From positions 32,001 through 96,000 of IMG/VR virus record IMGVR_UViG_3300046522_000316: a stretch of DNA of 64,000 bases; one strand, 5' to 3'. Position numbers and translations under genes: made by a program. Numbering within the stretch: the stretch's first letter is position 1; each line of letters starts with the position of its first letter. The DNA is from a virus. Its lineage: Duplodnaviria > Caudoviricetes. This document shows, piece after piece, positions 33,727-62,619 of the stretch. Under the pieces are notes generated by a model. The model worked only from the letters and a program-made list of their open reading frames with translations. It had not been told where the DNA came from and made no database searches.

Positions 33727-35130
33727 TTAGGCGAAACGAGCTTTTGGAACGGCACCACCGGATTTCTTACCAGCTGCTGCTTTGGCCGGTGCGGCTTTGG
33801 CGCTAGGCGCTTTAGCTGCTGGCTTTTTCGCGGCGGCTTTTTTGGTTGGTGCTTTGGCTGCTTTGGCCGGGGCCTTAGCTGCTTTGGCTGGTGCCTTGGC
33901 GGATTTCTTTTCAGCGGCTTTGGCCGGAGCTTTTGCAGCGGCTTTCACCGGTGCTTTGGCTTCAGTTTCTTTCGCTTTGTTTTTCGAACCAGCCGGACGG
34001 CCACGCTTTTTCGCAGGAGCTTCAGCGGCTGGCGCTTTGGCTGCTGGCTTTTTAGCGGCGGCTTTTTTGGTTGGTGCTTTTGCTGCTGGCTTTGCAGCCG
34101 GTGCAGCTTCAGCTTTCGGTTTGTTTTTGGTGCCAGCCGGGCGACCGCGTTTCTTGGCTGCTGGTGCAGCTGGAGCGGCGGCAGTTTCTTTCGGCTTGTT
34201 TTTGGTGCCAGCTGGACGACCGCGTTTTTTCGCAGGTGCTGCTTCAGCGGCTGGCGCTTTTGCGGCTGGTGCTTTTTTCGCGGCTTTCGCGGCTGGTGCC
34301 GGTGCAGCAGTTTCTTTCGGCTTGTTCTTCACGCCAGCAGGACGACCGCGTTTCTTGGCCGGTGCAGCGGCGGCAGGAGCCGGGGCGTTCGAAGCGGCTG
34401 GTTTAGCAGCTGCTTTAGGCGCCTTTTTGGTCACGCCACCAGCGGCTTTTTTGGCTGCTGGTTTTTTGGTGCCGAAGTGTTTTGCAGCAATGCGTGCAAC
34501 GCCGTCTTTCGCAGCTTTCGCGCCGATATCAACCAGACGTTTGCCTGCGGACGAAATCGGTTTGGCTTTGAAATTGCTGATCAGGGACTTCAGGGAGAAT
34601 TTACCCTTCGGTTTGATTTTCGCCATTGCCTGACGGTGGCTGGCGGCAGCTTTGGTACGCTCGGCGGCGAGGTTTTTACGCTCGTTCGCGTAGCGGGATT
34701 TTTCGGCTTGACGCATCGCGGCGCGTTTGGCTGGAGCGACTTTCGCAGAACGGATCTTGCTCAGTGCTTTCTGGTGAGCGCTTTGCAGGCCCAGCGATTT
34801 TTTCCGGATTTGTTCACGGATTTGACGCTGTGCAGCAGTCACTTCACGCTTTTGACCAGCGGCGTGCGAACCAGCGGCGCGGTGCTTACGGCGTTTTTTC
34901 CACGCGGCAACCACTTTCTTCGCTTCGGCTTCGGTGGCACCGTGGCGCATGGCCTTGGTGAACACTTGGCGAGCGTGGAACTTCAGCTTTTCAGCAGGAG
35001 TCATGGTTTTGTAGCGTTGTTTGGCAAGCTTGTTCAGCTTGTTTTTGTTTTTCCGGCGGTAGACTTTGCCTTTCTTGGCCTCTTTAATGGCCTCGGCTCC
35101 CTTCCGCTTTTGTACGACTTTCATAACCAT
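33727..35130 (-). CDS. Histone H1-like Lys/Ala/Pro-rich protein with four AT-hook-like repeats
   Basis: 467 aa dominated by K/A/P; four KKRGRPAG(V/T/S)KNK repeats; PAKKAAAKK-type repeats. Confidence 0.8.
   Translation of the reverse strand: MVMKVVQKRKGAEAIKEAKKGKVYRRKNKNKLNKLAKQRYKTMTPAEKLKFHARQVFTKAMRHGATEAEAKKVVAAWKKRRKHRAAGSHAAGQKREVTAAQRQIREQIRKKSLGLQSAHQKALSKIRSAKVAPAKRAAMRQAEKSRYANERKNLAAERTKAAASHRQAMAKIKPKGKFSLKSLISNFKAKPISSAGKRLVDIGAKAAKDGVARIAAKHFGTKKPAAKKAAGGVTKKAPKAAAKPAASNAPAPAAAAPAKKRGRPAGVKNKPKETAAPAPAAKAAKKAPAAKAPAAEAAPAKKRGRPAGTKNKPKETAAAPAAPAAKKRGRPAGTKNKPKAEAAPAAKPAAKAPTKKAAAKKPAAKAPAAEAPAKKRGRPAGSKNKAKETEAKAPVKAAAKAPAKAAEKKSAKAPAKAAKAPAKAAKAPTKKAAAKKPAAKAPSAKAAPAKAAAGKKSGGAVPKARFA
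33965..34362 (-). repeat. Four imperfect coding repeats of AKKRGRPAGxKNKxK
   Basis: Plus-strand copies near 33970, 34115, 34188 and 34321. Confidence 0.85.
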
Positions 35131-35240
35131 CGTGCGAATCCTCGATTAAGGGTGTGTAGTTGGCTTAATCGTAGCGCCACGATGCGTACCAACTAATAAT
35201 AAATTAGTATTATCCGAATTAATTAAAAGTTCCGGTACGG

Positions 35241-36290
35241 TCAGGAAAAGCCGAGGGCGTTGCGGGCTTTATTCGCCTCCTTTAACGTCAATTTTATTTC
35301 CTTTTGATCCAGCCCTTCGGCCCCAAGGAATGCTTCCAAACCGAATAGCGGATCAATGTCGGCTCGTTCGATTTTAATCGTTTCAATATCCGTATTATCT
35401 ACGGATTTATTTCCCGTCCAATGAATGCCCCCGGTAATATTCGGATATTGCAGCATTAAATCGGCAGGCATTGGCACTTCAGGATTGAAATGCAGTTTAT
35501 AACGGATATTCGAATCGTGCTTCAGTTTCTTCAGATCATTGAGGTCATCAATAACCAGATTAATCAGCGTGAAGCCCGGTTTATTCTCGACGAATTTGTG
35601 TTCGAATTCAATCTTGTTATCGACCAACGTCGCCCGGAAATGAATGAACCCTTTAGGCAACGCTTCACCGAAATTCTTTTGGAACGGATTACCGCAATAA
35701 ACCGCACGCTTCGATTTCATGTACTGGTATTGATGGATATGACCGCTGATTGTGAAATCGTTTTTGTGCGCTTGCAGTTCGTGCTTCGTTTTCAATGCCC
35801 GGCCATTGTCACCAATCGCCCCGGTATATTCCACGTGTGCGATATTCAACGCGCCTTCTTTTTTCGACAACGATTTCAGGCACGGATAAGGCAGCAGGTT
35901 GACCGGCACGCCGTCGATTTCTACGCGCTCAGGTTTCAATACGATTTTGAGATTTTTGAATGCACGCGTCTTGCTCAAACGGTACATGAAATTCATCGAC
36001 ATTTTCTCGACGTTTTCAAAGTCGTGATTGCCTGCCACGTAAATGATGGTCAGCAGCTTGTCGTATTTGTAGAACAGGTTAAACAGTTTGGTGTAAGTGT
36101 CGAACGGCAGGTTCGGTGTATCGGTAATGTCGCCGGGAAACAGCACGTATTTAATGCCGTTATTCAGCGCGTATTGAAAAATCTTTTCACCCTCGGCCAG
36201 AATGCGATCATCGCCGTCCGAGAAATGTTTATTCAAACCGGTCAGGTGCCAGTCACTGGTGGAAATGCCTTCAAACGATGGGTTCGACAC
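35241..36290 (-). CDS. sbcD: SbcD/Mre11 metallophosphoesterase nuclease
   Basis: TSDWH, FPGDITD, AGNHD, SGHIH, YCGNPFQKNFGE motifs. Confidence 0.9.
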   Translation of the reverse strand: MSNPSFEGISTSDWHLTGLNKHFSDGDDRILAEGEKIFQYALNNGIKYVLFPGDITDTPNLPFDTYTKLFNLFYKYDKLLTIIYVAGNHDFENVEKMSMNFMYRLSKTRAFKNLKIVLKPERVEIDGVPVNLLPYPCLKSLSKKEGALNIAHVEYTGAIGDNGRALKTKHELQAHKNDFTISGHIHQYQYMKSKRAVYCGNPFQKNFGEALPKGFIHFRATLVDNKIEFEHKFVENKPGFTLINLVIDDLNDLKKLKHDSNIRYKLHFNPEVPMPADLMLQYPNITGGIHWTGNKSVDNTDIETIKIERADIDPLFGLEAFLGAEGLDQKEIKLTLKEANKARNALGFS

Positions 36291-36299
36291 TGGTTGTTC

Positions 36300-36605
36300 C
36301 TATTTACGAGTCCATGAGAGTTCCAAATCGTAACCGAGTTTGGTGGCGATCACGATTAACACATCGAGGTCGGCATGCACCAATTTCTCATGGTCATTTT
36401 CTGGAACTTCGTCATAGAAATACGGAGTGAGTTCGCGATTCAGCGGCCCGCCCATGACAAGGTATTTACTGCGCACAAATTCACGAAAAAGGCGGTCATG
36501 GTCGAGACGCGGTTTGCCCTTGAGTGAGGGCCGGGATTGACGATCCAATTCGTTGATGATCAGAGCGTAAAGTTCCCGCTTCATTTTATTTACAGTATGG
36601 TTCAT
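36300..36605 (-). CDS. Hypothetical protein
   Basis: Start at 36605 (ATGA overlap) or 36584. Confidence 0.55.
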   Translation of the reverse strand: MNHTVNKMKRELYALIINELDRQSRPSLKGKPRLDHDRLFREFVRSKYLVMGGPLNRELTPYFYDEVPENDHEKLVHADLDVLIVIATKLGYDLELSWTRK

Positions 36606-36994
36606 TCGCGATTTACCGTGACCGTGAAGTGGATGCGTTTGAGGGGCTGGCACAACTGGAATTCGGTGTAGACAGTGCCGAGTTGCTTGCGCCCTACTTT
36701 GTGCGCGTGGCGGCGACCGTACAGCGTGAGGTCAAGGATTTTCTTTCCGTCCGTATCGTTGAGGCGAACAACGCAGCGATTTTTAATATCGTGGATTGAG
36801 TAGGCCGCAACCTGTGCCGAAAACGGATCGTAAATGGCGCCACTCGTTTTGAGGTCTTCCATGAATTCGCTAATGTGTTTGCCGAATTCTTCGCGCTCAC
36901 GTTTTTCGTCACGCGGTGCCGTTACGATTTCTTCAACCTGTTGCTGGATGTGAGCCAACAGGCGGCGCGCATTGATCTTTTCGAGCGGAGTCAT
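36602..36994 (-). CDS. Hypothetical protein
   Basis: Coupled ORF. Confidence 0.65.
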   Translation of the reverse strand: MTPLEKINARRLLAHIQQQVEEIVTAPRDEKREREEFGKHISEFMEDLKTSGAIYDPFSAQVAAYSIHDIKNRCVVRLNDTDGKKILDLTLYGRRHAHKVGRKQLGTVYTEFQLCQPLKRIHFTVTVNRE

Positions 36995-37308
36995 GCGAGA
37001 TTCCTGTGACGAAGGCGCAGGCAGGAGCCGGGATAAAGAACTTTCGGATCAAACAGATTATTGATGAACGCCACACGGTCGGCGTCCACTTCAAAACGCT
37101 GTGCAATCTCCACCAATTTGTCGTTGGTTTTGATGTGGTAAATGTTGTAGCGGTCGCCCAGTTCACGTTCGTACTGAACATCGCTGAAACATTCGGCGGG
37201 CGGCGTGTAAACGCAACGTGTGCGAAAGATCGGAACGTCCAGCGGATTCAATTGCGCGGCCAGCATTTCGATTTGTTCTTCGCGGTCTAGCTCGACAACT
37301 GCATTCAT
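36991..37308 (-). CDS. LysM domain protein
   Basis: YHIKTNDKLVEIAQRFEVDADRVAFINNLFDPKVLYPGSCLRL is a LysM consensus match. Confidence 0.85.
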   Translation of the reverse strand: MNAVVELDREEQIEMLAAQLNPLDVPIFRTRCVYTPPAECFSDVQYERELGDRYNIYHIKTNDKLVEIAQRFEVDADRVAFINNLFDPKVLYPGSCLRLRHRNLA

Positions 37309-37658
37309 TGGGCGTCCTCAACGGATTTATAACGATCTTCCCACTCAACAGCCGGGGGATTTTCTGGATCGAATTCGTACAGGCCTTCGTGGCCCGTGAT
37401 TTCCGAAATGGTGATGCGACGATTACCGCCACGGCTCCCGGCTTCCCACACTTCACAATCGAAGAAAGCAACGAGAACATCACGCAGCGTAGGGAACAAT
37501 TCTTTGATTCGTTCCCAACTTTCGTTTTCAAGCATTTCGGTGACGTAAACCCACGACGCATCCTCTTCCGCACGCAGCACGCAGTGGATTGGTTCCTGCC
37601 CACGAATACGGATTTCTTCAAACGTGAGTTTCAGTTTCAGAAGTTCATGCATCGCCAT
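37305..37658 (-). CDS. Hypothetical protein
   Basis: Probable start at 37658 or 37652. Confidence 0.6.
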   Translation of the reverse strand: MAMHELLKLKLTFEEIRIRGQEPIHCVLRAEEDASWVYVTEMLENESWERIKELFPTLRDVLVAFFDCEVWEAGSRGGNRRITISEITGHEGLYEFDPENPPAVEWEDRYKSVEDAQ

Positions 37659-37896
37659 CGTCGTCACCGGGTTTTTCGTTGATAAGGGCCAGACCTTTTT
37701 TGGTGGCCCAACCACTGTTCAGGCTCACACCGTAGTCGATGTATCCGCGATCCGCTGCACGCTCCATTGCGCGCCAGCAAACTTTTTCGGATTCACCGGT
37801 TGTTTCAATCAATACGGCGAGCGGAGATAACGCGAATTCTTGCCGCCAGACATAAGCATCAACCACCATGCGATCGGTTACGTCTTTCCGGGCCAT
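37645..37896 (-). CDS. Small winged-helix-like hypothetical protein
   Basis: EKVCWRAMERAADRGYIDYGVSLNSGWATKKG pattern. Confidence 0.5.
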   Translation of the reverse strand: MARKDVTDRMVVDAYVWRQEFALSPLAVLIETTGESEKVCWRAMERAADRGYIDYGVSLNSGWATKKGLALINEKPGDDDGDA

Positions 37897-37899
37897 TTT

Positions 37900-38247
37900 T
37901 TAATCCCCTGTAATTGGTTTCCAAAGTTTCGCGTATTTCAAAACATTCGGAAGGTTGTCACTCTGCACGGGCAGCACCACAAGGCACGACGGTTCCCCGT
38001 TGCAGATTGTGTTTTCGTGGCCTTGGTGACATGCCAAAGTTTCACGGATTTTATCGAACTCACGGCGAGTAACACGCACCGTTACTTTGCGGAAAGAGTG
38101 AATAAACCATTCGATGTATTCGGGATATTTTGGATCGTCGAAAATCGTATGGGCAGTCAGGATGGAATGCGCAACCAATGTCGGCACCATGTAATCAGGT
38201 GCTTCGTCGAGAACTGCGATGTACATTTTGCTGTAGCGTTCGTTCAT
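37900..38247 (-). CDS. Peptidyl-tRNA hydrolase 2 (Pth2)-like protein
   Basis: MYIAVLD...LVAHSIL...W...SFRKVTVRV matches the Pth2 layout (K.VIVV...AAQ..HA...W...Q.KVVLKV). Confidence 0.55.
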   Translation of the reverse strand: MNERYSKMYIAVLDEAPDYMVPTLVAHSILTAHTIFDDPKYPEYIEWFIHSFRKVTVRVTRREFDKIRETLACHQGHENTICNGEPSCLVVLPVQSDNLPNVLKYAKLWKPITGD

Positions 38248-38645
38248 GCTTCTACCGTTTCAATTTGCCAGTCGATGCTGTAGGTTTTCGCGAACACTTG
38301 CGCCAGACGCAGTGAACGGAATTTGATTTTGAAACAGGGCCAACTGTACTCAACAACCGCACCGCCCGGCACGCCGTAAACGACGTAAGGTTTTACAACC
38401 GGCTGGGGTTCGGCTGCTTTCATCCAGTCACGCACGAATTTCGTCACAGGGCTGTGCGAATTATCCACGACTTCGCAATGGTGCGTCAGCTTGGGCGGTT
38501 TCACCAGACAACCGGAAGGTTTATTCGTGAGTTCGAATCCTTGCAGGCCTTCGACAAAGGCGCCGGTAGCTTCCAGAGACAGCGGAATATTTTCGAAAGT
38601 TACCTGATATTTGCGCAGGTCTTCCGGGCAAATGTTCCCGATCAT
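38244..38645 (-). CDS. Hypothetical protein
   Basis: Coupled ORF. Confidence 0.6.
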   Translation of the reverse strand: MIGNICPEDLRKYQVTFENIPLSLEATGAFVEGLQGFELTNKPSGCLVKPPKLTHHCEVVDNSHSPVTKFVRDWMKAAEPQPVVKPYVVYGVPGGAVVEYSWPCFKIKFRSLRLAQVFAKTYSIDWQIETVEA

Positions 38646-39037
38646 TCCAGCACTTCCATCATGAGGCGATCAACGCTCAGGCCGATACGCTGGCACATGC
38701 CGGTCAACTGGTCACGGCTCAGACGATCAATGCGGCCCTGCAAAATATCGTCAAGGCGATTGTTGGAAATGTTCAACTGCTGACAAATCACTTCGGGGTT
38801 TTGGCCGAGACGTTTGATTTCACGACCGAGGGCGCGCAGCAGGTAGCTACGAATTTTCATGGCGAGCGATTCTTCAGGGTTTTCGCAGATCGCATCCCAC
38901 ACGCTTTCGTAACACTGGCGTTTGGTTTCTTCGTCCACGGAACTTTTGACGATATCGACCACCAGCACATTTTGGTCAATGGCTTCAGGCGGGTTGTTGG
39001 TGTGGTCGCAGATAACCGTATATTCGTGTCGGCTCAT
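38642..39037 (-). CDS. XRE-type helix-turn-helix protein
   Basis: QNPEVICQQLNISNNRLDDILQGRIDRLSRDQL resembles HTH_37/HigA-like XRE domains. Confidence 0.7.
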   Translation of the reverse strand: MSRHEYTVICDHTNNPPEAIDQNVLVVDIVKSSVDEETKRQCYESVWDAICENPEESLAMKIRSYLLRALGREIKRLGQNPEVICQQLNISNNRLDDILQGRIDRLSRDQLTGMCQRIGLSVDRLMMEVLE

Positions 39038-39492
39038 TTTCTTTTTGTCCAGTGGTTGTATTCAGGAATGCGGCACCCCTTCATTTCGACGCGAGCCAAA
39101 CGGGCCGAGCGGTATTTGAAGACGTAGTGCTGGTTTTCTACGCCACGCTCACGCACATAAACTTCAACGCCACGCGTCGTGTGCTTGAGAACGAAATAGT
39201 ATTTGGATTGTGGCTGAACTTCGCGGAAAGGATCGCAGTGGATTTCCATTCCGTGGATATGGCCGATTTTCCCGGTGAACACGGCTTCCAGTTCGACCGG
39301 CTGTTTCTCGATGATTGTTTCACCACCGTCAGAAACTTTCACGCATTTACGTTGCGGCAAATCAATCGGGAACGATGCCGGAAAACTCCACATTGTCCAC
39401 CGGCCCTTTTTAGGCAAACGACCGCCGAACGGACACGGCTCTGTCGGTTTGCACGGCGTGGAAATGGAAAGCAATTTCGCGCTGTCAGCCAT
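39034..39492 (-). CDS. Hypothetical protein
   Basis: Probable start MADSAK at 39492, ~33 nt downstream of a variant ATGTAAATG motif. Confidence 0.6.
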   Translation of the reverse strand: MADSAKLLSISTPCKPTEPCPFGGRLPKKGRWTMWSFPASFPIDLPQRKCVKVSDGGETIIEKQPVELEAVFTGKIGHIHGMEIHCDPFREVQPQSKYYFVLKHTTRGVEVYVRERGVENQHYVFKYRSARLARVEMKGCRIPEYNHWTKRK

Positions 39493-39527
39493 TGACCAAC
39501 CGCGTTGCACTTCGGAACCGAATACAT

Positions 39528-39932
39528 TTACATGCATGGATCAATCACCCGTTCCGCTTTTTTAAATTTCAGGTTTTTCATGTGGGTTTTGAATGCCACA
39601 CGGGCCAGACGCAGCGAGCGGAAAGACTTACCGAACATCACAGCACCTTTCCGAGTAGCACGACAGAACAGGCGTGGCGACATGATGCGGCGGTATGTGC
39701 GTTCGAACACTTTGCGCATGGCTTCCGAATGCAAATTCGATACACGCATGCGATTGTTCATCGACGCTTCGAAAAACGAAACGCTGGTATCACATCCGCT
39801 AGTCAGGAATTCTTCGGAAATTCCGAGTGCAGCCATTCGCAGTTTTGTCAGTTGTTCAATTTCTTCACTGATCGGCAAACGCCAATCCGAGATTTGAATG
39901 CTTTCAGATTTGTCAGGCTGGATAATGGTCAT
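39528..39932 (-). CDS. Hypothetical protein with portal-like segment
   Basis: AGGAGG RBS before MTIIQ; contains KLRMAALGISEEFLTSG. Confidence 0.6.
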   Translation of the reverse strand: MTIIQPDKSESIQISDWRLPISEEIEQLTKLRMAALGISEEFLTSGCDTSVSFFEASMNNRMRVSNLHSEAMRKVFERTYRRIMSPRLFCRATRKGAVMFGKSFRSLRLARVAFKTHMKNLKFKKAERVIDPCM

Positions 39933-40074
39933 GGTACACCTCCTAACACGTGAATGATTTTGTTGCAGCGCTTGCACCGCCAGCATGCCCACCGACAGTT
40001 ATCGGACGAATTACGCCAACGGTGTTTAAATAGGCACAGCAACTTGAATTTTTGTGGTTCGCCATCAACGTTTT

Positions 40075-40800
40075 TCATGGGTCAATTAGCGCATCCGCTG
40101 CGCCCCGGTTGATTGCACGGATATAACGCATTTCGTATGCGCTGATTTTAAGTTTCATTGCCACGTCGTCTTCGTCGCCGTCCATTTGCAGACCTTCGCG
40201 GTAAATTGCAACCACGTCAGAACTCAGCAGGGCGACCAAACGTTCCACTTGTTTGTCGGACATGTGTACGCTTTTACGAAGCTTCTCAATTCGGTTATTG
40301 AGTTGGCGATATGTTTCGGTTGAGGCCAGCCATTTGCACGCCATTTGCCGCACAGGAAGTTGGTGCGAATCTTTTGGCATGCTGTAGATAAACGTCATGA
40401 AATTTGTGAAGAACGTTTGCTGACTTGAGGCGTGTTTCTTGGCGGCTTGGATCATGTCGAATTTACGACGGCCACCAGTGGTGTTCTTTGCAGGCGGCAA
40501 GCCTTTGAATTCCAGCAGCGTGTATCCGTCCACGTGGAAGTCTTCGGCCTGTTTGTAATCAACGGGCACAATATCAAACGGTGCCAAAGAAATCGGGTCA
40601 TCGCAGACGTAACAAATGCAATCCGTTTTGTCTGCGAGGGCACGATGGGTTTCGAAGCTCACAGCGTCGATAAAAATCAAATGCTTCCGAGCTTCGAAGT
40701 CAGCGCCAAGCATGGCGATTTGTGCGCGGGGCACTCCGAGTCCACGAAGATGCACCAAAACTTTATCCGGCGCTGTGTGCGCAAAACCGTAGGCGATCAT
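40075..40800 (-). CDS. Hypothetical protein
   Basis: 241-aa ORF. Confidence 0.7.
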   Translation of the reverse strand: MIAYGFAHTAPDKVLVHLRGLGVPRAQIAMLGADFEARKHLIFIDAVSFETHRALADKTDCICYVCDDPISLAPFDIVPVDYKQAEDFHVDGYTLLEFKGLPPAKNTTGGRRKFDMIQAAKKHASSQQTFFTNFMTFIYSMPKDSHQLPVRQMACKWLASTETYRQLNNRIEKLRKSVHMSDKQVERLVALLSSDVVAIYREGLQMDGDEDDVAMKLKISAYEMRYIRAINRGAADALIDP

Positions 40801-40934
40801 TTGCTATTTTTTACCTTCAGCTTTTTGTGCATGGCGCGGCACAGGGTCAGCGCGTCCGAATGGAACTTGGCGGCTGCACCGTGAAAGGTAAGGGTGTTCT
40901 GGAATTTCAGAATACGCAGGTCAGTATTGTTCAT
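40797..40934 (-). CDS. Small hypothetical protein (45 aa)
   Basis: Hand-translated MNNTDLRILKFQNTLTFHG...KNSK; fills the gap with ATGA overlaps on both sides; below the track cutoff. Confidence 0.5.
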   Translation of the reverse strand: MNNTDLRILKFQNTLTFHGAAAKFHSDALTLCRAMHKKLKVKNSK

Positions 40935-41101
40935 TTGATTTTCCCGGCCATTGGCCCTGTGTGTTCGATGGTTTTTCCGATTTCAATCATTGTCGCAAAT
41001 TGATCCCGGTTTTCTTCGATGTATTTCTGCATCCGTTCAATGCCGCGTTGGAGCTTGTGTTCCTTTTTCGACTGCAACTTCGGTTTGTTCTTCGAGCGCA
41101 T
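40931..41101 (-). CDS. Small hypothetical protein
   Basis: Probable start MRSKNK at 41101; overlaps the next ORF. Confidence 0.4.
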   Translation of the reverse strand: MRSKNKPKLQSKKEHKLQRGIERMQKYIEENRDQFATMIEIGKTIEHTGPMAGKIK

Positions 41102-41330
41102 CTTTGTGGTTCCGTTCGATCCATTCAAGTACGCGCACCTTTTCAACCGCGATGGCGTCGGTCATCTGCTCAAACATATCTGGCAGCAGCTGCATTGCAA
41201 GTGGCTGGCGAGGCAATTCCACTTCACAGCGAACGCCGATACCGTGAACCATTTGCAGCGCTTTGATCATCCAGAATTCCGAATGCGGCGTACAAGTCCA
41301 CTGCGTTTTGTTATTGCGTTGGTCGATCAT
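41037..41330 (-). CDS. Hypothetical protein
   Basis: Coupled ORF. Confidence 0.5.
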   Translation of the reverse strand: MIDQRNNKTQWTCTPHSEFWMIKALQMVHGIGVRCEVELPRQPLAMQLLPDMFEQMTDAIAVEKVRVLEWIERNHKDALEEQTEVAVEKGTQAPTRH

Positions 41331-41623
41331 ATTTTGTTCCCCAGTAGCGCCCCTTTTTTAACGAGGGCGTAGGTCATGCCGGATACAACGTGGATATCGA
41401 ATACGAACATGATTTCCACGCTGGCGTTGCCTGTCCAACGCAGACCGACGATGCACGGGAATACTGTCGGCTCTACGTCTGGATTATTTACAGTAGGCAT
41501 CCAGCCCCAGTGGTCGAGGGCATTGATATCGTTTTCGATAAAGAATTCGCGAAGGAATTCACGGTACTCGCTTTCGTCACGAAGTGTTTTGGCTTCGAAG
41601 CCTTCACGCATCATAGCGAACAT
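41327..41623 (-). CDS. Hypothetical protein
   Basis: Probable start at 41623 or 41614. Confidence 0.55.
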   Translation of the reverse strand: MFAMMREGFEAKTLRDESEYREFLREFFIENDINALDHWGWMPTVNNPDVEPTVFPCIVGLRWTGNASVEIMFVFDIHVVSGMTYALVKKGALLGNKI

Positions 41624-43907
41624 TGGAAACCCCCTTATATTTCTCAACCGTAACGTAGGAACATTCCGGGTGCAGATGCTTGCCCTTCTGCGTGATGATG
41701 AACACGTGCTGCACCAGCTTACGCAGGAACGGAACGTAGCGTTCAACAAACAGGCCGGTGGTCGCTAAGTCCATGTGGGCATCAGGTTCGTCGAGGATTG
41801 CCAGATTCACCCGGCGACTGTCTTTCGCCATGATTACGCACGCAAGGAAATGCAGCAGACGGAAACTATCCGATTCAGCACCGGACAATTCACGCACGTC
41901 AGAAACGTTACCTTGTCCCCGGTCAACTGTGATATGTACGCCGTCTTCTTTGGCTTCCACTTTGAACTGGAAATTCTCCGCGAAAATCAGCTGCGCATAT
42001 TTGTTGTAGTTCTGTTCTAGGCCGTAAACGATTTCGTGCATCGCGTGCAGCTTCAGCCCTTTGTTGCTGTAGGCCTTCGCCAATATCTTGAAGCGCTTCA
42101 GTTTCCGGATCAGAGGTTTGTATTCCTCGACCTTGAGACTGGCTTCCTCACGTTGCTTTTTCAGCAGTTTCCATTCGGCACGCAGCGAGCTATACCGCAC
42201 GGTGATTTTGTGAGCTTTGCTGTATTTCTTTTCGACCTTTTCCAGCTTGGCTTCGACTTCCGCCAGACGCTTCAGGATATTGTCGTCGGCAGGCACTTCG
42301 TCGAACTCGGCCAGTCGCGCTTTGAGGCGTTTAACTTCGTCCAGCATTTCGAGTTGCTGTTCGATTTTCTCCAGCGACACAACCGGTTGACGCTTCGGCT
42401 GCTTCGGCTTTTCCAGTTCAGACATTTGCTTCGTGATTTCGTCGAAGCGCACTGCGTTTTCGCGCAGGTCTTCGAGTTTTTCCAGTTCAGCACGCAGCGC
42501 CTTGATCTTTTTGCGAGCGCCGTAGAAAGCGCGTTCGTCAAACTTCAGGGCCTTGATGATTTCCGTGTTTTCCTGCTTCGTGATTCGCAGTTCCAACGCG
42601 TGAATCATCGAGTGCGCTTTGCCTTTGCGTTTCTTCGCCTGTGCAATCGTGCGCTCAAGGTCTTTGATGTTGATTTTCTGCATACACGTCGGACACGCGC
42701 CGTCGTCATGATCGTGCAGCAGGTCGGCCAACTTCATTGTCGTTTTGGCGGTGCTGTATTCCTCTTTCAGCGCCTCCATTGGATCGACTTTTTCTTTGTT
42801 GCACTGCGTCAGGAATTTACGCAGATCCGGATCAACATGGTCGTCCAAGTTTTCCAGTTCACGATTGGCTGCGTCGTGCTTGTCCCGAACTTTCTCAAGG
42901 CGTTTATCTTCCGCTTCGAGAACGTCCAGTTCTTCCCGAATTTCTTTGATGCGTTTGCGCAGAGTTTTACTGTCGCCACCGTCGCCCAGTTCTTCGAGTT
43001 GCTTCACCAGTTTTTTCGACCGGCGTGCGTACTTCTCGTTTTCCTCTTCGAACTTTTCCAGCGATTCGTGCAGCTTGCGTTGCTCTTTCAAATCTGCACG
43101 ATCAAAACGGATTTTACCTTGCAGCTTTTTCAGACGTTCGCTGGTGGTCGTGTAGAACTCAACCTGCTTCGACAGGCTTTTCAGTTCCTGACGTTTCGCC
43201 TGCAACTTGTTCACTTTTTTGGACTGGGTGTTGACGATTTCTTTCGCCGCTTCCAGTTCCTTTTCCAGCGTCTTGTTCCAGCCGTTTTTATTCAGCGCAT
43301 CGTTGATGTTCATCAGCTGGTGCGTGAAGGCATCCGACTTGTTCTGCGCGACTTTTACTTCGTCGATTTTCTTTTCGAAATGACGACGCAGCACGTCGAA
43401 CTGATCCAGACGCCACACTTCGCTGATATAGGTCATCCGCGCACGGGGAGTACCGTACAGGAATTCCATTTTCTTCTGCGATTGCAAATGCACATACGAG
43501 TACCATTCATCTGAGGTCAGCGGAATGATTTGTTCGATTTGCGCACGCTGATTGGCTTGGCCCCGCACTTGCAGGTCTTCACCATCGCGCCAGATTTGAT
43601 ACCCGCCCGCCTGTTGTCGAATCCTCCACTTGTGCCCGAGGTTATTCACATCGAATTCAATGAACGATCCTTTCGAGTGGATACGATTTTTCTTTCGGGT
43701 ATCTGCCAACGGCGTCTGTTCAAAACGCACGTTAGGCAGCATCGAGAACAGCAAGGATTTACCGGCGCCGTTGTTTTGGTCTTTGGAGATTTGCGAGTCG
43801 CGGTTGTGCCCGCTAACCGTGGTCAAACCACAGTTGTTAGTGAAATCGAATTCACCCTTTTTGTACGAAACGATACCGCTAAAACGGCTGCCGGTAATCT
43901 CGATCAT
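41604..43907 (-). CDS. sbcC: SbcC/Rad50 SMC-like ATPase
   Basis: Walker A with insert (SGHN...NGAGKS), coiled coils, zinc hook CPTC, signature LSGAE, Walker B ILDEPDAHMD. Confidence 0.9.
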   Translation of the reverse strand: MIEITGSRFSGIVSYKKGEFDFTNNCGLTTVSGHNRDSQISKDQNNGAGKSLLFSMLPNVRFEQTPLADTRKKNRIHSKGSFIEFDVNNLGHKWRIRQQAGGYQIWRDGEDLQVRGQANQRAQIEQIIPLTSDEWYSYVHLQSQKKMEFLYGTPRARMTYISEVWRLDQFDVLRRHFEKKIDEVKVAQNKSDAFTHQLMNINDALNKNGWNKTLEKELEAAKEIVNTQSKKVNKLQAKRQELKSLSKQVEFYTTTSERLKKLQGKIRFDRADLKEQRKLHESLEKFEEENEKYARRSKKLVKQLEELGDGGDSKTLRKRIKEIREELDVLEAEDKRLEKVRDKHDAANRELENLDDHVDPDLRKFLTQCNKEKVDPMEALKEEYSTAKTTMKLADLLHDHDDGACPTCMQKINIKDLERTIAQAKKRKGKAHSMIHALELRITKQENTEIIKALKFDERAFYGARKKIKALRAELEKLEDLRENAVRFDEITKQMSELEKPKQPKRQPVVSLEKIEQQLEMLDEVKRLKARLAEFDEVPADDNILKRLAEVEAKLEKVEKKYSKAHKITVRYSSLRAEWKLLKKQREEASLKVEEYKPLIRKLKRFKILAKAYSNKGLKLHAMHEIVYGLEQNYNKYAQLIFAENFQFKVEAKEDGVHITVDRGQGNVSDVRELSGAESDSFRLLHFLACVIMAKDSRRVNLAILDEPDAHMDLATTGLFVERYVPFLRKLVQHVFIITQKGKHLHPECSYVTVEKYKGVSNVRYDA

Positions 43908-47166: not shown

Positions 47167-47196
47167 GTCACAGCCTACGTTAGAGGGTATAGGTTA

Positions 47197-47206
47197 TATT
47201 TACAGT
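47197..47206 (-). promoter_or_regulatory. ACTGTAAATA motif, putative phage promoter
   Basis: ~31 nt upstream of the clamp loader start, overlapping the stop of the previous gene. Confidence 0.6.
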
Positions 47207-47696: not shown

Positions 47697-47705
47697 GCTT
47701 AACCT

Positions 47706-54933: not shown

Positions 54934-55403
54934 TTGAGTTTGTACCCGTAGTGGATCGAACCACCGTTTGGGCCACCGTTGGAAACGTAACCGCCACGCA
55001 GTTCGAAAATGTCCTGCGCTTTGTTGATAATCTGCGTCCACTCTTCCGCGATTTGCGCATTGGTGAAAGTCAGGCGTGCGCAATTGTCCGGGCGATCAAA
55101 GATCAGGAACACCGAATCGGAGGCCAGCGCAATTTTCAGCAGGTTCGGGAAAACAGTCCACGGTTTCCACGCACTCAACGAAAGGAATTGCTTGTGGATT
55201 TCTGCGCGGACGCTGGCAGTCGCTACCATCAACGCCGATTCCAATTCCGGTTCGAAAAAGTTATTCGAATTGTTGGTGATTTGCCCGATGGAATGGCCGC
55301 GCAACGCGTAGTGCGCATCGTCGTCGTTTTTGACGATCAGCTGGCCGTCGATTGGCGTCACGTTGGTATCGTCGTCGGTGATAATCAGGTGAACGTATTT
55401 CAT
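54930..55403 (-). CDS. Hypothetical protein
   Basis: Coupled ORF. Confidence 0.65.
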   Translation of the reverse strand: MKYVHLIITDDDTNVTPIDGQLIVKNDDDAHYALRGHSIGQITNNSNNFFEPELESALMVATASVRAEIHKQFLSLSAWKPWTVFPNLLKIALASDSVFLIFDRPDNCARLTFTNAQIAEEWTQIINKAQDIFELRGGYVSNGGPNGGSIHYGYKLK

Positions 55404-56482
55404 CGCAGTTTGTATCCTTTCGAGATTGTCCGGAGTGGTTCAGTCGGTTGCAATACACGCGCAGAGCAAACCCATTCCAGCCGGGCCTGATCCTGCATAA
55501 TCTTCCGTTCCTTGTCGCGAATTTTCAGATAGAGATTTCGTTCTGGAATGCAGACGATATCGCCTTCGTTCACGTCGCTGACTTCTGGCCCCATCACGAT
55601 TGGAATATCGCTCATGGTTTGCAGGCGGTCGTAATCGAGTACGGTAGTTTCGCCGCCGATGTTCGCGTTAATCCGCTCGATGCCCATATCGAATTCAATT
55701 GCGAAATGAGTGAAGCGCTCGACCTTCACATACAGGTCAATCGTGCGGCCTTCGAAGCGGCGCAAATCTGCAATCGTGATTTGTTTTCCGTCTTTACGCA
55801 ACGGACGTTCACGCAGCACGAACAAATCTTCGCGGATGCTGTAGGTTGCAGAAACGAAATACTTCGGCACCAGCACTTGGAACATCACGTAACCGTTTTG
55901 TTCTTCGCGCACAAATGCATGCGGGCTGCTGGTCGAATCCAAATGCACGCCTTCGAGTCCGGCCACATCGTAATGCGTGTAGACCTTGCGCTGGGCACCG
56001 TAGGATTTATAACCGGGCTGGCGCAGTGAGCGATAGCAGATACCGCAATTGACAGAGCCTTGGTTTACCGAGTCTTCGAATTGTTCCGTTTCGATTCCAC
56101 GCAGGCCGTCGTTTGCCTCTTCCTGAATACCGGAAACGTCGCGGACTTCCACGTCGTTAAACATGCGATCCATTTCCGTACCGAAAATATCTTCGTCTTG
56201 GAATTCGATCCCGATATTTTCCGAGGAACGATCACGCTGGGGAATTGTTGGCGTTACGTTTGAGGTGGGCGGAATTTCGACGTTGGTACGGCAGCAGGAA
56301 CAGGGGCGCCCGACTTGCCGATCAATCTGATACAGAACGATTTTAACCGCGTTAACGGCCAACGAATTCGAAACCTGATGGTTGTAAGCTGTAACCGTTT
56401 CATCCAAACGGGCTTGGGCCTGTTTCTGAATGAAATTTCGTGCGTGGTTACGACGCACATTAGCGGGGCCGCGTTTGATCAT
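55400..56482 (-). CDS. Probable head-completion/closure-type structural protein
   Basis: PCSC...CGICY..GY motif and OB-like C-terminus (EGDIVCIPERN..LKI); assignment by recollection of head-closure proteins. Confidence 0.4.
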   Translation of the reverse strand: MIKRGPANVRRNHARNFIQKQAQARLDETVTAYNHQVSNSLAVNAVKIVLYQIDRQVGRPCSCCRTNVEIPPTSNVTPTIPQRDRSSENIGIEFQDEDIFGTEMDRMFNDVEVRDVSGIQEEANDGLRGIETEQFEDSVNQGSVNCGICYRSLRQPGYKSYGAQRKVYTHYDVAGLEGVHLDSTSSPHAFVREEQNGYVMFQVLVPKYFVSATYSIREDLFVLRERPLRKDGKQITIADLRRFEGRTIDLYVKVERFTHFAIEFDMGIERINANIGGETTVLDYDRLQTMSDIPIVMGPEVSDVNEGDIVCIPERNLYLKIRDKERKIMQDQARLEWVCSARVLQPTEPLRTISKGYKLR

Positions 56483-56569
56483 AGATGATCCTCCATTCCC
56501 TATAAATTACTGGCTTGAAAACCGAGGATGCGAATTGTAATTCAGTAGTATGAGTTAAGGAGCAACACC

Positions 56570-57205
56570 ATGGCCCGTAAGCGTAAAGCAAAACCGAAGC
56601 CGATCAAGATTGAATTGCCTGTGCCAACGAAGAAACGTATTCGCGTAATGGGCGAAGACATGGGCACAAAGAATTACGCCGTAACGCAAATCGAAGCGTG
56701 GGTGAAAGAGGAAGACGGCAAACGCCGCATGTGCTTTAAAATCATCGGTACAAAGATGATGGAACACATGATTCACGACGTAAAGATTGCACAGCTTGAA
56801 TGCCGTGCGTTTGTCGATGAATACAACCAATTGCCAGCCGTTGATTACATTGCAGCCGAACGCTTTCAGGCCCGGCCCGGTCGCGGTGCTGGAACCACGG
56901 TTGAAGCCATTTCCATGATGCTTGGCGTAATGATGATCCTGCGCCCGGATATTCCAACCGAGTTCTATACGGCTGCAACGTGGAAGAACGAATTCAATCG
57001 GACGCCTGCCGATTTGAAAGAGATGTACGAAGACCTGAAAGTGAAATACAAAGGCAAAGGAATCGTGATTCACCAACTGGATTCGTTCCTTATCGCGCTT
57101 TATCACGCAGCGAAACTATTGCGTGTTCCGGCCTATGATTTCATTCATTCGCATACCGACGAAGAACGACTTTTCAATGTCCTTTCCAAAGCCCCAACCC
57201 TTTAA
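56570..57205 (+). CDS. RuvC-like Holliday junction resolvase
   Basis: MGEDMGTKNYAV (first Asp), AAERFQ (Glu), HQLDSFLIA (C-terminal Asp); AAGGAG RBS. Confidence 0.7.
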   Translation: MARKRKAKPKPIKIELPVPTKKRIRVMGEDMGTKNYAVTQIEAWVKEEDGKRRMCFKIIGTKMMEHMIHDVKIAQLECRAFVDEYNQLPAVDYIAAERFQARPGRGAGTTVEAISMMLGVMMILRPDIPTEFYTAATWKNEFNRTPADLKEMYEDLKVKYKGKGIVIHQLDSFLIALYHAAKLLRVPAYDFIHSHTDEERLFNVLSKAPTL

Positions 57206-59252: not shown

Positions 59253-59570
59253 TTAAACAATTCCGATACGGTATTCGATACGCTTGGCGCAGGTCAGCAC
59301 ACGGTTTTTGAAACTGCCGTGGCGCAACGTCTGGAGCAATTCGAAATTCGCGTTGATAGATTTTTCCAACGCAATCACGCTGACCAGCGCGTCGGCCTCG
59401 GTCATGTCGCCTTCGAAGCCCGACACACCACGCAGCGAACTCCAATCACCTACGCCGAATTCTTCCATTAAGGCGCGTTCGATTTCATCATCCTTGCGCG
59501 ACAGCTTGTTCAGCGCTTCCATGATTTCGTTGTCAGCCAGCGGGATTTGATTCAGTGGGCCAAAATTCAT
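59253..59570 (-). CDS. Hypothetical protein
   Basis: ATGA-coupled to primase. Confidence 0.65.
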   Translation of the reverse strand: MNFGPLNQIPLADNEIMEALNKLSRKDDEIERALMEEFGVGDWSSLRGVSGFEGDMTEADALVSVIALEKSINANFELLQTLRHGSFKNRVLTCAKRIEYRIGIV

Positions 59571-60691
59571 TTCTGTTTAATCCTCTTCGGTTTCTTTTCC
59601 ATGGACAGCTTCGGGAATTCCTTGCTGGTTTTCTCGATAGCCTTCACTTTCTTTTTCTTGGCCGGTGCCGAGGCTTCGACCTTTTTCACTTTCTTTTTCT
59701 TCGGCTTTTCTTCTTGACCGTAGGCGTAGACAATATCCTTCACCTTGTCGATCAGCTTCTGCGGTGCGGCGTCCGGGTCAAGCTTGATCAGATTGCCTTC
59801 GTCGTCATACTTGCACGGCAATTTCAGTTCTTCGAAATCCAGTTGGCCGTCACAGAAACTTTCGACCAGACGCGCCATCTGCTTACCGGCTTTGTCGTTA
59901 TCCGTCAGCGTGTAAACCTTCGTGATGCCAAGGCCTTGCAGCAGCATCAATTTACGCGGGCCGAACATTTTCGAACCGAGAATTGCACAGGCCGGGATTT
60001 TATTCAGCACCAGACGCAGCCAGTCACGCGGGCCTTCACACAGCACCACCGCTTTGCATCCGAACAAATCATGCTTGCGAATAAAATCGTAACCGAGCAA
60101 ACCGTAGTCCATTACCCAATCACCTTTGGTGTTGATATAGGACAATCCGGTTTCCTGTTTTTCCATCAACGCTTTAACGCCGCCCTTGTACCGGCCATTA
60201 ATGTAAATAGGAAGAGCAAGCAGAACGTCTTCGCGTTGATCCTCACTGAACATGTGACCATTCACGCGTTCAATCATTGTGCCGGGATATCCGCGCCAAT
60301 CTTTTTCCTTGGGCCACGGAATTACCGCGCCGCCCAATTCTTCGTAGAGTCGCCCGATGGAACGGTTATTCGTATTTTCTCTTTCTTTCTTTTTCCGGTT
60401 GTATCGTGCCCGGTCGCCAGCAGTTGATCCGTTGAAGAATTGCCATTTTTTCAGCTGCTGTAAATCAAGCTTAGCCGCCAGCTTGTTCCACGGCCCCGAT
60501 TCACCACACGACCAACAGTTAAACGTTCCTACAGGCACCCGCGCTTCTAGGCTGATGTTAATGCCGAGCGATGGGTTACTGTCTTCGTGGAACGGACAAA
60601 CGATTTCGAACGTGGTTGTTTTGAATCTGGTTGGGCCTTGGATTTTTTCTAGTTCGGCCATGATGACCGTGAAGGCATCATCAAGTTTCAT
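59567..60691 (-). CDS. dnaG: DnaG-type DNA primase
   Basis: CHC2 Zn finger CPFHEDSNPSL...CWSCG; TOPRIM LCEGPRD...TDNDKAG; Lys-rich C-terminal tail. Confidence 0.9.
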   Translation of the reverse strand: MKLDDAFTVIMAELEKIQGPTRFKTTTFEIVCPFHEDSNPSLGINISLEARVPVGTFNCWSCGESGPWNKLAAKLDLQQLKKWQFFNGSTAGDRARYNRKKKERENTNNRSIGRLYEELGGAVIPWPKEKDWRGYPGTMIERVNGHMFSEDQREDVLLALPIYINGRYKGGVKALMEKQETGLSYINTKGDWVMDYGLLGYDFIRKHDLFGCKAVVLCEGPRDWLRLVLNKIPACAILGSKMFGPRKLMLLQGLGITKVYTLTDNDKAGKQMARLVESFCDGQLDFEELKLPCKYDDEGNLIKLDPDAAPQKLIDKVKDIVYAYGQEEKPKKKKVKKVEASAPAKKKKVKAIEKTSKEFPKLSMEKKPKRIKQK

Positions 60692-60725: not shown

Positions 60726-60735
60726 CATTTACAGT
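60726..60735 (-). promoter_or_regulatory. ACTGTAAATG variant motif, putative phage promoter
   Basis: ~35 nt upstream of the primase start in the divergent gap. Confidence 0.55.
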
Positions 60736-60748: not shown

Positions 60749-61915
60749 GTGTTTAAGGATATTGCGAGCCGTATAAAAAAGGAAAGACGGTCAGTGCATA
60801 TCGAATCGCACTTAGGCCAAGTCTATGCGCAGATAATGGATAGCAACATTATCACGCCGAATGGTCGCGGGCCGGAATACCGCCCGTCCTCCTTTCCAAT
60901 TTGTCCAATCCTCGTTCACATGCAGTTTTTGCAAGCGGCGGAAAACGGATTCTATCAATCGAACATGACAGCAGGCGGCGGGTATTTCACAACCGTCGGA
61001 ACTGCTGCGCACGAAAACATTCAGTATTACATGGGGCAGACACGGAAAGTTTTCGGTGATTGGAAATGCCGGAACAGCAAGTGTCAGAAGCACCACGACG
61101 CCCGCGATCTTTACGACGAAAAAGGCGTGATGTACCGCAAAGGGAAGCTGACGACAAAAAACACCACGAACAACCTGTGCCCGGATTGCGGCATCGCTTG
61201 TGAGTATGTGGAAAAATGCATTGATTACTTCGGCCTGAAAGGTCACATCGACTGCATTTATGAAATGCCCGATGGCACGTACTGGGTTCTCGACTACAAG
61301 ACGACCACCAAAGGTCTGATGGAAGGGAACAAACTTCCGAAGCGTGAACACTTGATGCAGGTTCCGACGTACTGCTACGTGTTGGAAAAGAAATACAAAA
61401 TGAAAATCTCCGGATTCTCATTGCTGTACCTCAGTCGCGACAACCCGTATCAGTTCAAAGAGAAAGCCGAACGCTGGGGCGAGCGCCGTCGCAACGAAAC
61501 GAAAAAACTGATCATCCAGCAGAAGAAAATCTACCGGTCTGCTGTGAACAGTTTTATTCAGAACAAACCGGAACTCGCGATCAAGTGCAAACCGTGCAAA
61601 GCGCCAGACGATTACGAACGTTTGATGCCTGCGTATGAGGCGTGCCCGATGGAAAAGGTCTGCTTTAATAAACGCAGCCTGACCGACAACATGCTGCACG
61701 CACTGCAACCGGAAAAACTGATCAAAGTTCTGAACATCACCAACAACATGGAAAACTATGTTGAGCCTGAAGTGCTGTCGGTGCTGAAGAAACTTTGCGA
61801 CAAGCCGAAGAAATTGAAAAAGAAATCTAGCGCGTCTGACACCGACCTCAAACTGCCGTCGGCCAAGGCGAAAAAGAAAAAGCCTTCTAAACCTTTGAGG
61901 TTGACCAAGAAATGA
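60749..61915 (+). CDS. Cas4-like PD-(D/E)xK exonuclease
   Basis: RPSSFPICP, GTAAH, GHIDCI...LDYKT, QVPTY, C-terminal C..C...C...C; no CRISPR array nearby. Confidence 0.8.
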   Translation: MFKDIASRIKKERRSVHIESHLGQVYAQIMDSNIITPNGRGPEYRPSSFPICPILVHMQFLQAAENGFYQSNMTAGGGYFTTVGTAAHENIQYYMGQTRKVFGDWKCRNSKCQKHHDARDLYDEKGVMYRKGKLTTKNTTNNLCPDCGIACEYVEKCIDYFGLKGHIDCIYEMPDGTYWVLDYKTTTKGLMEGNKLPKREHLMQVPTYCYVLEKKYKMKISGFSLLYLSRDNPYQFKEKAERWGERRRNETKKLIIQQKKIYRSAVNSFIQNKPELAIKCKPCKAPDDYERLMPAYEACPMEKVCFNKRSLTDNMLHALQPEKLIKVLNITNNMENYVEPEVLSVLKKLCDKPKKLKKKSSASDTDLKLPSAKAKKKKPSKPLRLTKK

Positions 61916-62619
61916 AAATCACCATTAGCGTGAAACCGAAAGTGGTTGCGACCGCTGGCACGTACAGCGCACCCGATATGGGCGCCGCCGAACAGATGCA
62001 ATACTCTGACGAAGAACTGGCCGAGCGTGACCGCGAAGAAAAAGCGCGTGAGGAAGTAGCGGCGGAAGAGGAACGGAAAAAAGCTGCCGAGAAACAGAAA
62101 AAAGACGCAGCAAAAGCTCCGCAAACTCCGAAAGAATCTGGCGAGTCCGGCACCGATGGCGACAAATCGGATGATGATTCTGAAGAGGAAGAGGACGAAG
62201 AATCTGACGACGATGATTCTGAAGACGATGATTCTGAAGACGACGACTCCGAAGAAAGCGACGATGACGACTCCGAGGATGATGATTCCGAAGAGGAAGA
62301 GGACGACGATGACGACGGCGACGAAGAGGCCACCGCAGCGAGCAAGCTGCCTTATCCGGAAGCACAAACGAATCGTAAAGTTCCTGATTTGATTCCGGCA
62401 GAAACAGCGGAAAAAGTCGTTGATCCTGAAGTGCAAAAGGAACAGGACGAAATCCGCGAAAGTGAAGCAGCGAAAAGCCGTCCGCTTTCCAAAGACGATC
62501 CGAACAACAAAGCGGCACAAGGTAAAAAGCTGGATAAAGACAACGGGAATACTTTGGTTGCTACGGCATCCTCGGAATTCGGCCTGCCTTATCCAGATGT
62601 GAAGATGCGCAATCGTTAA
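61912..62619 (+). CDS. Highly acidic low-complexity protein
   Basis: Central (DDDSE)n / poly-D/E tract at ~62170..62330. Confidence 0.75.
   Translation: MKITISVKPKVVATAGTYSAPDMGAAEQMQYSDEELAERDREEKAREEVAAEEERKKAAEKQKKDAAKAPQTPKESGESGTDGDKSDDDSEEEEDEESDDDDSEDDDSEDDDSEESDDDDSEDDDSEEEEDDDDDGDEEATAASKLPYPEAQTNRKVPDLIPAETAEKVVDPEVQKEQDEIRESEAAKSRPLSKDDPNNKAAQGKKLDKDNGNTLVATASSEFGLPYPDVKMRNR

Follow-up and report, generated by a model that had tools for sequence, protein, structure and literature searches.

The subject of this work is an extremely basic, H1/HMGA-like protein and a giant SNF2-family ATPase that are encoded on a stretch of tailed-phage DNA (Duplodnaviria; Caudoviricetes), namely the 64,000 nucleotides at positions 32,001 to 96,000 of the IMG/VR record IMGVR_UViG_3300046522_000316, referred to below as the window. 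Megablast of window positions 33000-48000 returned only the Pseudomonas phages HRDY3 (313 kb, 77.7% identity) and Lu11 (280 kb, 75.3%), and the order of genes in the window is identical to that in HRDY3 and in Lu11. On these matches and the common gene order, the window is a piece of a Lu11-like Pseudomonas jumbo phage from soil. Its G+C content is 50%, and its genes lie on the minus strand until ~56.5 kb, beyond which both strands are used. Comparisons within the Lu11/PaBG group cover seven phages (the window, HRDY3, Lu11, PaBG, NCTB, Dickeya JA29 and Erwinia Y3). A preliminary description of the same DNA had listed an H1/AT-hook protein (33727), a giant SNF2 ATPase (19705), a membrane protein sharing a 21-residue motif with the first (47200), a poly-Lys zincin protease (47706), a poly-D/E protein (61912) and Lys tails on many DNA enzymes. 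All of these sequence features exist at those positions. The genes that carry our argument are the following.

19705-25785, minus strand: giant SNF2-family ATPase, 2026 amino acids (Pfam SNF2-rel_dom and Helicase_C; phrog_21391 end to end)
28070-33608, minus strand: virion-type gene block, flanked by the SNF2 operon and the H1-like gene (PHROG matches; synteny with Lu11, HRDY3, PaBG, NCTB, JA29 and Y3)
28953-29396, minus strand: capsid-protein mini-paralogue, 147 amino acids (phrog_2522, major head protein, a 50-residue piece only, E 8e-8)
29359-30576, minus strand: head-tail connector (PHROG match)
33727-35130, minus strand: H1/HMGA-like basic protein, 467 amino acids (translation and composition)
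33990-34365, minus strand: AT-hook array within the H1-like gene, 4 x KKRGRPAG[VTS]KNK[PA]K, partly from a 75-nucleotide tandem repeat

The H1-like protein has an isoelectric point (pI) of 11.6, consists of 21.8% Lys, 30% Ala and 8.4% Pro, and carries a net charge of ~+113. A basic helical N-domain (about residues 1-200) is followed by a Lys/Ala/Pro repeat tail with the four AT-hooks; residues 225-467 are K/A/P repeats of the AKKPAAKAP type. Several RGRP cores with basic flanks, the pattern of the Pfam AT-hook (PF02178), are present as four units, and we take the RGRP core and the GSKNK extension of these units to be HMGA-type AT-hook features. A homologue with 53% N-domain identity and the same hook unit (P0025) scores 26.4 bits against the AT_hook cut-off of 17.4, over six stretches; the window protein itself matched no Pfam family, including in the search in which P0025 passed. 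Searches of Pfam, PHROG and NCBIfam likewise found no family for the H1-like protein, nor for the small membrane protein and the acidic protein described below. The protein is very probably a bulk DNA binder, as judged from its sequence.

Is it a histone? The Pfam Linker_histone model (PF00538) gave no match to the H1-like protein even at E up to 1. An AlphaFold2 model of residues 1-232 contains helices only (predicted local distance difference test score, pLDDT, 80), arranged as helical hairpins with no winged helix, and a Foldseek search with the N-domain model gave no PDB match at E <= 0.001, only generic long-helix matches. Because the modelled N-domain consists of helical hairpins and has neither a winged helix nor a fold match, the H1-like protein is, by this prediction, not a linker histone by descent. 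Its Lys/Ala/Pro-rich disordered C-terminus does have the character of a linker histone tail, as an analogy only.

Sequence searches with the N-domain match only HRDY3, Lu11 and 14 metagenomic clusters, and the repeat tails vary among these 14 metagenomic homologues. Nearly identical N-domains bear differing repeat arrays, so the tail must evolve quickly; its charge is retained, and members of the Lu11 subclade also retain the GRP core (as RGRP hooks in the window, GRGRP in HRDY3 and PGRPKK in Lu11). Outside this subclade (PaBG, Y3, JA29) the tails are plain K/A/P or K/T repeats. The position of the gene is conserved more widely. The order SbcD, basic protein, 332-residue protein, connector is kept in all seven phages of the group, and the proteins in this slot are all basic and of low complexity (215-467 amino acids, pI 11.2-12.0). 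In PaBG, NCTB, JA29 and Y3, where the gene again lies between SbcD and the connector block, they have 215-332 amino acids and the same pI range, 11.2-12.0. Pairwise BLASTP of the window protein against its PaBG counterpart, gp191, gave composition-driven matches only (E 22), and a profile comparison was needed: hhalign aligned the Lu11-type N-domain profile with gp191 over 165 columns (94% probability, E 1.3e-7). On this alignment and the shared gene order, the H1-like protein is a member of an extremely basic, largely disordered, putatively DNA-coating family with a conserved slot in Lu11/PaBG/Dickeya/Erwinia jumbo phages. The NCTB counterpart (L004:12019-12666, pI 12.0) is annotated 'Low-complexity acidic protein, XCC2875 type', which is a misnomer.

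The neighbouring virion-type block holds the connector, the capsid-protein mini-paralogue and four conserved hypothetical proteins. The PaBG counterpart of the mini-paralogue is annotated as an endolysin, which looks doubtful.

On the far side of this neck gene block, 8 kb from the H1-like gene, lies the gene for the SNF2 giant. Both Pfam helicase-lobe models score above their cut-offs (SNF2-rel_dom, PF00176, 37.1 bits versus 24.9; Helicase_C, PF00271, 28.3 versus 23.5), and GGGKT (Walker A) and DESH (DExH) can be read in the translation. The N-lobe, C-lobe, Walker A and DExH elements that define the SNF2 family are thereby all present, and remodelling activity is predicted only. The ATPase core is flanked by an 880-residue N-region and a 560-residue C-region, and the protein also has a K/E-rich coil and acidic patches. 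About 65 phage records contain full-length relatives, which are present throughout the Lu11/PaBG group; the core alone is also found in RSL1-, Sauron- and Motura-type phages, and the 880-residue N-region is almost confined to proteins of about 1,800-2,700 amino acids.

The location of both proteins is indicated by work on PaBG. Sodium dodecyl sulphate-polyacrylamide gel electrophoresis of CsCl-purified PaBG virions yielded 14 identified Coomassie-visible bands (PMC7412058). Band 1 was assigned to gp202 (221,161.95 Da, 'RuvB helicase-like') and band 8 to gp191 (35,272.92 Da, 'Unknown') (PMC7412058, Table 1); gp191 was seen in several bands and was hence taken to be proteolytically processed (PMC7412058). 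The mass that we compute for the K/A-rich PaBG protein beside SbcD is 35,272.5 Da, which matches gp191, and that of the PaBG SNF2 counterpart, which is 35% identical to the window SNF2 protein over its full length, is 221,159 Da, which matches gp202. Counting genes from fixed points of the PaBG genome (sbcC 186, DNA polymerase I 205, uvsW 210) leads to the same two genes. The text of the PaBG paper names gene 191 sbcD and also swaps the clamp and clamp-loader labels (PaBG, locus L003; PMC7412058). An identity of gp191 with SbcD is ruled out by mass (40,443 Da computed for PaBG SbcD versus 35,272.92 Da), and since the Table 1 mass matches the K/A-rich protein beside it, we identify gp191 with the latter. 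By these correspondences the PaBG counterparts of the H1-like protein and of the SNF2 giant are virion components in one related phage with an analysed particle. The PaBG head is 136 nm across and holds a 258 kb genome, a density of ~0.24-0.39 bp per nm3 by our own rough estimate, versus ~0.5 in typical tailed phages.

Transcription signals around the H1-like gene point in the same direction. The terminator and the promoter-like motifs were found by reading the sequence; a generic scan for sigma-70 promoters and terminators around the gene was uninformative.

33661-33700, minus strand: intrinsic terminator, a G+C stem followed by T6, directly 3' of the H1-like stop codon
35168-35183, minus strand: hairpin AUCGU-GGCGCU-ACGAU in the 5'-untranslated region of the H1-like mRNA (RNAalifold)
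35200-35206, minus strand: TAATTTA promoter-like motif of the H1-like gene, 76 nucleotides 5' of the start codon, in the context ATACTAATTTAT
6912-6918, minus strand: TAATTTA upstream of the tail sheath gene
28943-28949 and 33641-33647, minus strand: TAATTTA upstream of two neck-block genes
56503-56509, minus strand: TAATTTA upstream of the gene at 55400-56482, for a 360-residue protein
5203-6843, minus strand: tail sheath gene (Pfam Phage_sheath_1)
55400-56482, minus strand: conserved 360-residue protein (phrog_21298)

TAATTTA occurs five times in 64 kb, and all five copies are intergenic, on the coding strand and 27-76 nucleotides 5' of a start codon. The copy number is at chance level (5 observed, 4.99 expected) and only the placement is non-random, with a probability of ~6e-6 even against AT-only 7-mers. 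The positions are kept in HRDY3 and Lu11 and in part in PaBG. The motif precedes the H1-like counterparts in HRDY3, Lu11, PaBG, JA29 and Y3 (consensus ATRCTAATTTW), and in PaBG, too, it stands before the tail sheath gene. Upstream of DNA polymerase, clamp loader, primase and the SbcD operon stands AACTGTAAATA instead, which is annotated as a promoter in the Lu11 record; the ACTGTAAAT motif lies at 47198-47206 (clamp loader) and 60727-60735 (primase). Because it is found upstream of the tail sheath gene, we tie the TAATTTA class to virion genes, and it resembles a second promoter motif, separate from ACTGTAAAT and of the virion class. The 360-residue phrog_21298 protein, which bears the motif though its gene lies among replication genes, may be an unrecognised virion or late protein.

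Within the leader of the H1-like mRNA, the hairpin has six pairs, three of them with compensatory changes (window, HRDY3, Lu11 and PaBG aligned), and could be a translational operator or a stability element. The gene also has a strong Shine-Dalgarno sequence. A strong terminator follows the H1-like counterparts in HRDY3, Lu11, PaBG, JA29 and Y3, NCTB being the sole exception examined. The H1-like gene is a self-contained, probably very active transcription unit of the virion promoter class, and its own motif, hairpin, strong Shine-Dalgarno sequence and terminator suggest that the protein is probably made late and in large amounts.

The reading that we favour, with somewhat better than even confidence, is that of a late, head-packaged H1/HMGA-like DNA coat with a co-packaged SNF2 giant. 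The H1-like protein would be made late and in quantity, be loaded into the apparently roomy capsid with or onto the DNA, neutralize DNA phosphate charge with its own charge (~+113), and be trimmed by a protease; the SNF2 giant would be packaged in the head as well. More speculatively, coat and SNF2 protein would leave the head with the genome and enter the cell. In the Lu11 subclade the AT-hooks may then hold the coat in place on the DNA of the phage, whose G+C content of 50% makes it much AT-richer than that of the host (Pseudomonas DNA has about 60-66% G+C). The coat might shield the phage DNA from nucleases or MvaT-type silencers, and the SNF2 motor might translocate on, or clear, the coated DNA at entry; both steps are speculative.

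Several points weigh against this reading. The virion evidence for this phage comes through orthology with PaBG only, and our literature search found no virion proteome for this phage, Lu11, HRDY3 or others of the group. The PaBG identifications are matrix-assisted laser desorption/ionization (MALDI) peptide fingerprints of gel bands, and co-purification through adhesion to DNA or capsids is conceivable for so basic a protein. The gene numbering of the PaBG paper is inconsistent, so that the mass match alone settles the identity of gp191, and the Table 1 masses are theoretical and silent on copy number and on inside versus outside (PMC7412058). The late timing is inferred from the class of the motif. 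Finally, the N-terminus of the H1-like protein (MVMKVVQK) contains no recognisable head-loading tag or T4-type capsid targeting sequence; PaBG gp191 is processed although such a sequence is missing from the H1-like N-terminus.

The preliminary description had placed the same proteins elsewhere. It proposed a shell-less, charge-driven condensate or replication factory in which the H1/AT-hook protein, the SNF2 ATPase, the acidic protein, the membrane protein, the zincin and the Lys-tailed enzymes act together. The remaining components of that model are listed here.

45976-47166, minus strand: clamp loader with a Lys-rich N-terminal tail
47200-47472, minus strand: small membrane protein, 90 amino acids, with one N-terminal transmembrane helix, a K/R-rich linker and a cytoplasmic copy of the H1-like helix-turn-helix motif
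47706-48947, minus strand: zincin, probably a gluzincin metallopeptidase (HEIGH and EMFAEAF motifs, phrog_17197)
56570-57205, plus strand: Holliday-junction resolvase with a Lys/Arg-rich N-terminal tail
59567-60691, minus strand: DNA primase with a Lys-rich C-terminal tail
60749-61915, plus strand: PD-(D/E)XK (Cas4-like) nuclease with a Lys-rich C-terminal tail, immediately 5' of the acidic protein gene
61912-62619, plus strand: acidic disordered protein, 235 amino acids (pI 4.1, 34.5% D+E)

The membrane protein shares the motif R[QE][VI][FY]..A[MI][RD][HA]GA[TS]EAEA[KR]K[VA]V, 21 residues long, with residues 54-74 of the H1-like protein (BLASTP E 5e-5). The motif is invariant in 10 H1-like and seven membrane-protein sequences, and the cytoplasmic motif is the conserved part of the membrane protein. 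The gene was found in the window, HRDY3 and seven metagenomic clusters and was undetected in Lu11, PaBG, NCTB and Y3; in Lu11 its slot holds a lipoprotein gene. A general role as a conserved tether was rejected, the gene being absent from Lu11. Complex prediction for H1-like residues 1-200 paired with the cytoplasmic portion of the membrane protein scored 0.00, a value obtained without controls that speaks neither for nor against an interaction.

The protease is safely assigned as a zincin, and more tentatively as a gluzincin of the M34/ATLF-like type. The HEIGH and EMFAEAF motifs are conserved and are preceded by a poly-Lys N-terminal extension of ~90 residues. Sequence and profile searches of solved structures gave no match, and the Pfam ATLF match is weak (E 0.023). 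The best Foldseek matches of the AlphaFold2 model (pLDDT 90) are all gluzincins (M9 collagenase, M1 LTA4H, PPEP-3 and lethal factor) and are weak, with E of at least 0.03. The core is group-wide, being present in PaBG, NCTB, Y3 and JA29; the poly-Lys extension is confined to the Lu11 subclade and is missing in PaBG.

The acidic protein (N-terminus MKITISVK) contains a 60-residue D/E/S block, with an LPYP[END] motif on each side in the window and Lu11 that has partly diverged in HRDY3. Orthologues were found only in HRDY3 (68% identity) and Lu11 (57%), and its gene is the second of a two-gene unit with the Cas4-like nuclease in the replication region. Another acidic protein (690 amino acids, pI 4.6) is encoded between SbcC and the clamp loader at 43907-45979 on the minus strand; it has weak MarR/GntR winged-helix matches at both ends, and counterparts annotated as hypothetical are conserved in HRDY3 and Lu11.

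Nine of 73 proteins carry at least seven Lys in a terminal 30 residues (mean 2.6). Besides the H1-like protein and the zincin, the Lys-tailed proteins include the clamp loader, primase, PD-(D/E)XK nuclease, Holliday-junction resolvase, UvsW-like helicase and a small polymerase-like protein. The tails of these six DNA enzymes fall outside the family profiles, and the PaBG, JA29 and Y3 counterparts of the UvsW-like helicase and of the small polymerase-like protein have no such tail.

How far does the condensate model hold? We consider it unlikely. The proteins and their predicted DNA binding stand as the preliminary description had them; the place and time of action do not, since virion bands of PaBG correspond to the H1-like protein and to the SNF2 giant (PMC7412058) and the H1-like gene bears the motif of the tail sheath gene and not that of the replication genes. 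A protein that merely fills the virion had been named as the contrary outcome, and the evidence points toward a virion location. The remark that the window holds no chimallin or PhuZ gene extends to the relatives, which speaks for a shell-less model: neither tubulin (Pfam PF00091) nor a homologue of the phiKZ shell was found in the complete HRDY3, Lu11 and PaBG genomes, where phiKZ was positive for the shell and 13 of 14 cellular genomes for tubulin, and where the shell search, a single-sequence query, could miss very distant homologues. The Lys tails on six DNA enzymes also favour the model, as does the acidic patch that SNF2 counterparts keep between the ATPase lobes. Co-occurrence tells both ways. 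The H1-like protein and the full-length SNF2 protein are core genes of the whole group, and the AT-hooks, the zincin poly-Lys extension, most Lys tails and the acidic protein all belong to the Lu11 subclade only, which is a weak co-occurrence signal in favour of the model. Against it, the basic protein, the SNF2 protein and the zincin extend through the whole group, the acidic protein is encoded in three genomes, and Lu11 lacks the membrane protein. With three different phyletic depths, the six items are not one co-inherited, ancient module. From this distribution, the Lu11 subclade appears to have gained several charge-based features together; the acidic protein, zincin, membrane protein and Lys tails are real features of the subclade and only putative parts of one machine with the H1-like protein. 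Nothing observed ties the acidic protein, the zincin or the membrane protein functionally to the latter, which for the first two counts against joint action.

A second alternative, to which we give similarly little weight, keeps the basic protein late and in the cytoplasm, where it might compact DNA for packaging, shut down the host nucleoid or oppose silencing of the MvaT type; in PaBG particles it would then be present through adventitious sticking. Such an extreme charge makes co-purification plausible, and the protein has no recognisable head-loading tag. AT-hooks favour AT-rich DNA, as do HMGA and the minor-groove binders of the H-NS and Lsr2 types. However, gp191 remained Coomassie-visible after CsCl banding and appeared in several processed forms, like the capsid and other structural proteins, and the gene keeps its position beside the virion genes and has their promoter-type motif. 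That the basic protein instead sits on the particle exterior, as a polycation that aids adsorption to alginate, lipopolysaccharide or the extracellular DNA of biofilms, is highly improbable: PaBG virion association is silent on inside versus outside and relatives in the group have been described as 'hairy' myoviruses (PMC6143709), but AT-hooks specifically recognise the minor groove of DNA, no capsid-decoration or fibre domain is present in the protein (the bundle of helical hairpins modelled for its N-domain gave no fold match), and proteases would very readily attack a disordered, Lys-rich chain exposed on the surface.

A bolder form of the packaged-coat reading, which we mention as a long shot, has the genome of Lu11-type phages enter as a preassembled nucleoprotein. 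The coat would stay on the AT-richer phage DNA and shield it against MvaT-type silencing and nucleases, and the co-injected SNF2 protein, with its conserved acidic patches, would strip or slide the coat and so let transcription and replication start. In this version coat and motor would amount to a minimal, virion-borne chromatin-plus-remodeller system in a bacterial virus, to which the Lu11 subclade would have added the Lys tails and the acidic protein later, on the same charge code.

As a late, packaged coat and its accompanying motor, the H1-like protein and the SNF2 giant are a variation on the internal-protein theme. The T4 internal proteins IPI-III (PMC9026906) and adenovirus protein VII (PMC5491326) are likewise basic and late, are packed with the genome in hundreds of copies, are processed by a protease and are delivered with the DNA; protein VII remains on the incoming genome (PMC5491326). 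We found no sequence or fold relation between these proteins and the H1-like family, whose members are low-complexity Lys/Ala/Pro polymers of 215-467 amino acids with a helical N-domain and, in the Lu11 subclade, AT-hooks. The T4 proteins differ further in their capsid targeting sequence, which the H1-like N-terminus lacks; packaging of the latter is judged from one related phage.

The eukaryotic H1 C-terminal domain and HMGA proteins resemble the H1-like protein in having K/A/P repeats, extended AT-hooks, and charge combined with minor-groove binding, the last two being predicted from sequence for the phage protein. The winged-helix globular domain of H1 is missing from the H1-like protein, and the chemistry is common whereas the ancestry is not. 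Unlike those of H1 and HMGA, the phage repeats turn over fast between near-identical relatives.

Closer to the host, AlgP and PhaF of Pseudomonas have KPAA/AAKP repeat tails; the host genus thus uses such tails. In Myxococcus, CarD has an HMGA-type C-terminal domain (PMC2919716, PMC4374960). Prokaryotic AT-hook and H1-like K/A/P domains are interchangeable DNA anchors, and the same swap separates the Lu11-type proteins from those of PaBG, Y3 and JA29. CarD, AlgP and PhaF are, however, cellular regulators or granule binders with other N-domains, in contrast to the H1-like protein, a phage protein encoded among virion genes.

Giant packaged enzymes are known from phages P1 and N4. The 220-kDa SNF2 protein can be likened, by size and packaging, to P1 DarB, which serves as a precedent: this 250-kDa enzyme is packaged at about 40 copies per head, is thought to enter the cell and acts on DNA, defeating host restriction (PMC9024508). 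The phiKZ nucleus, built with chimallin and PhuZ, similarly organizes and protects the genome of a jumbo phage; HRDY3, Lu11 and PaBG belong to a different lineage and have neither component. Our literature search found no described tailed-phage family with an H1/HMGA-type polymer that bears true AT-hooks (a full-text search for AT-hook and jumbo phage was empty), and no described phage that packs a SNF2-family motor.

Lu11, HRDY3 and PaBG can be cultivated on laboratory strains of Pseudomonas, which makes each step of the proposed mechanism directly testable. If the packaged-coat reading is true, it bears on the condensation of a 260-310-kb genome in an oversized head that has no inner body of the phiKZ type, on whether phage DNA can arrive pre-coated and so evade silencing or restriction, and on the roles of SNF2 motors beyond eukaryotic chromatin.

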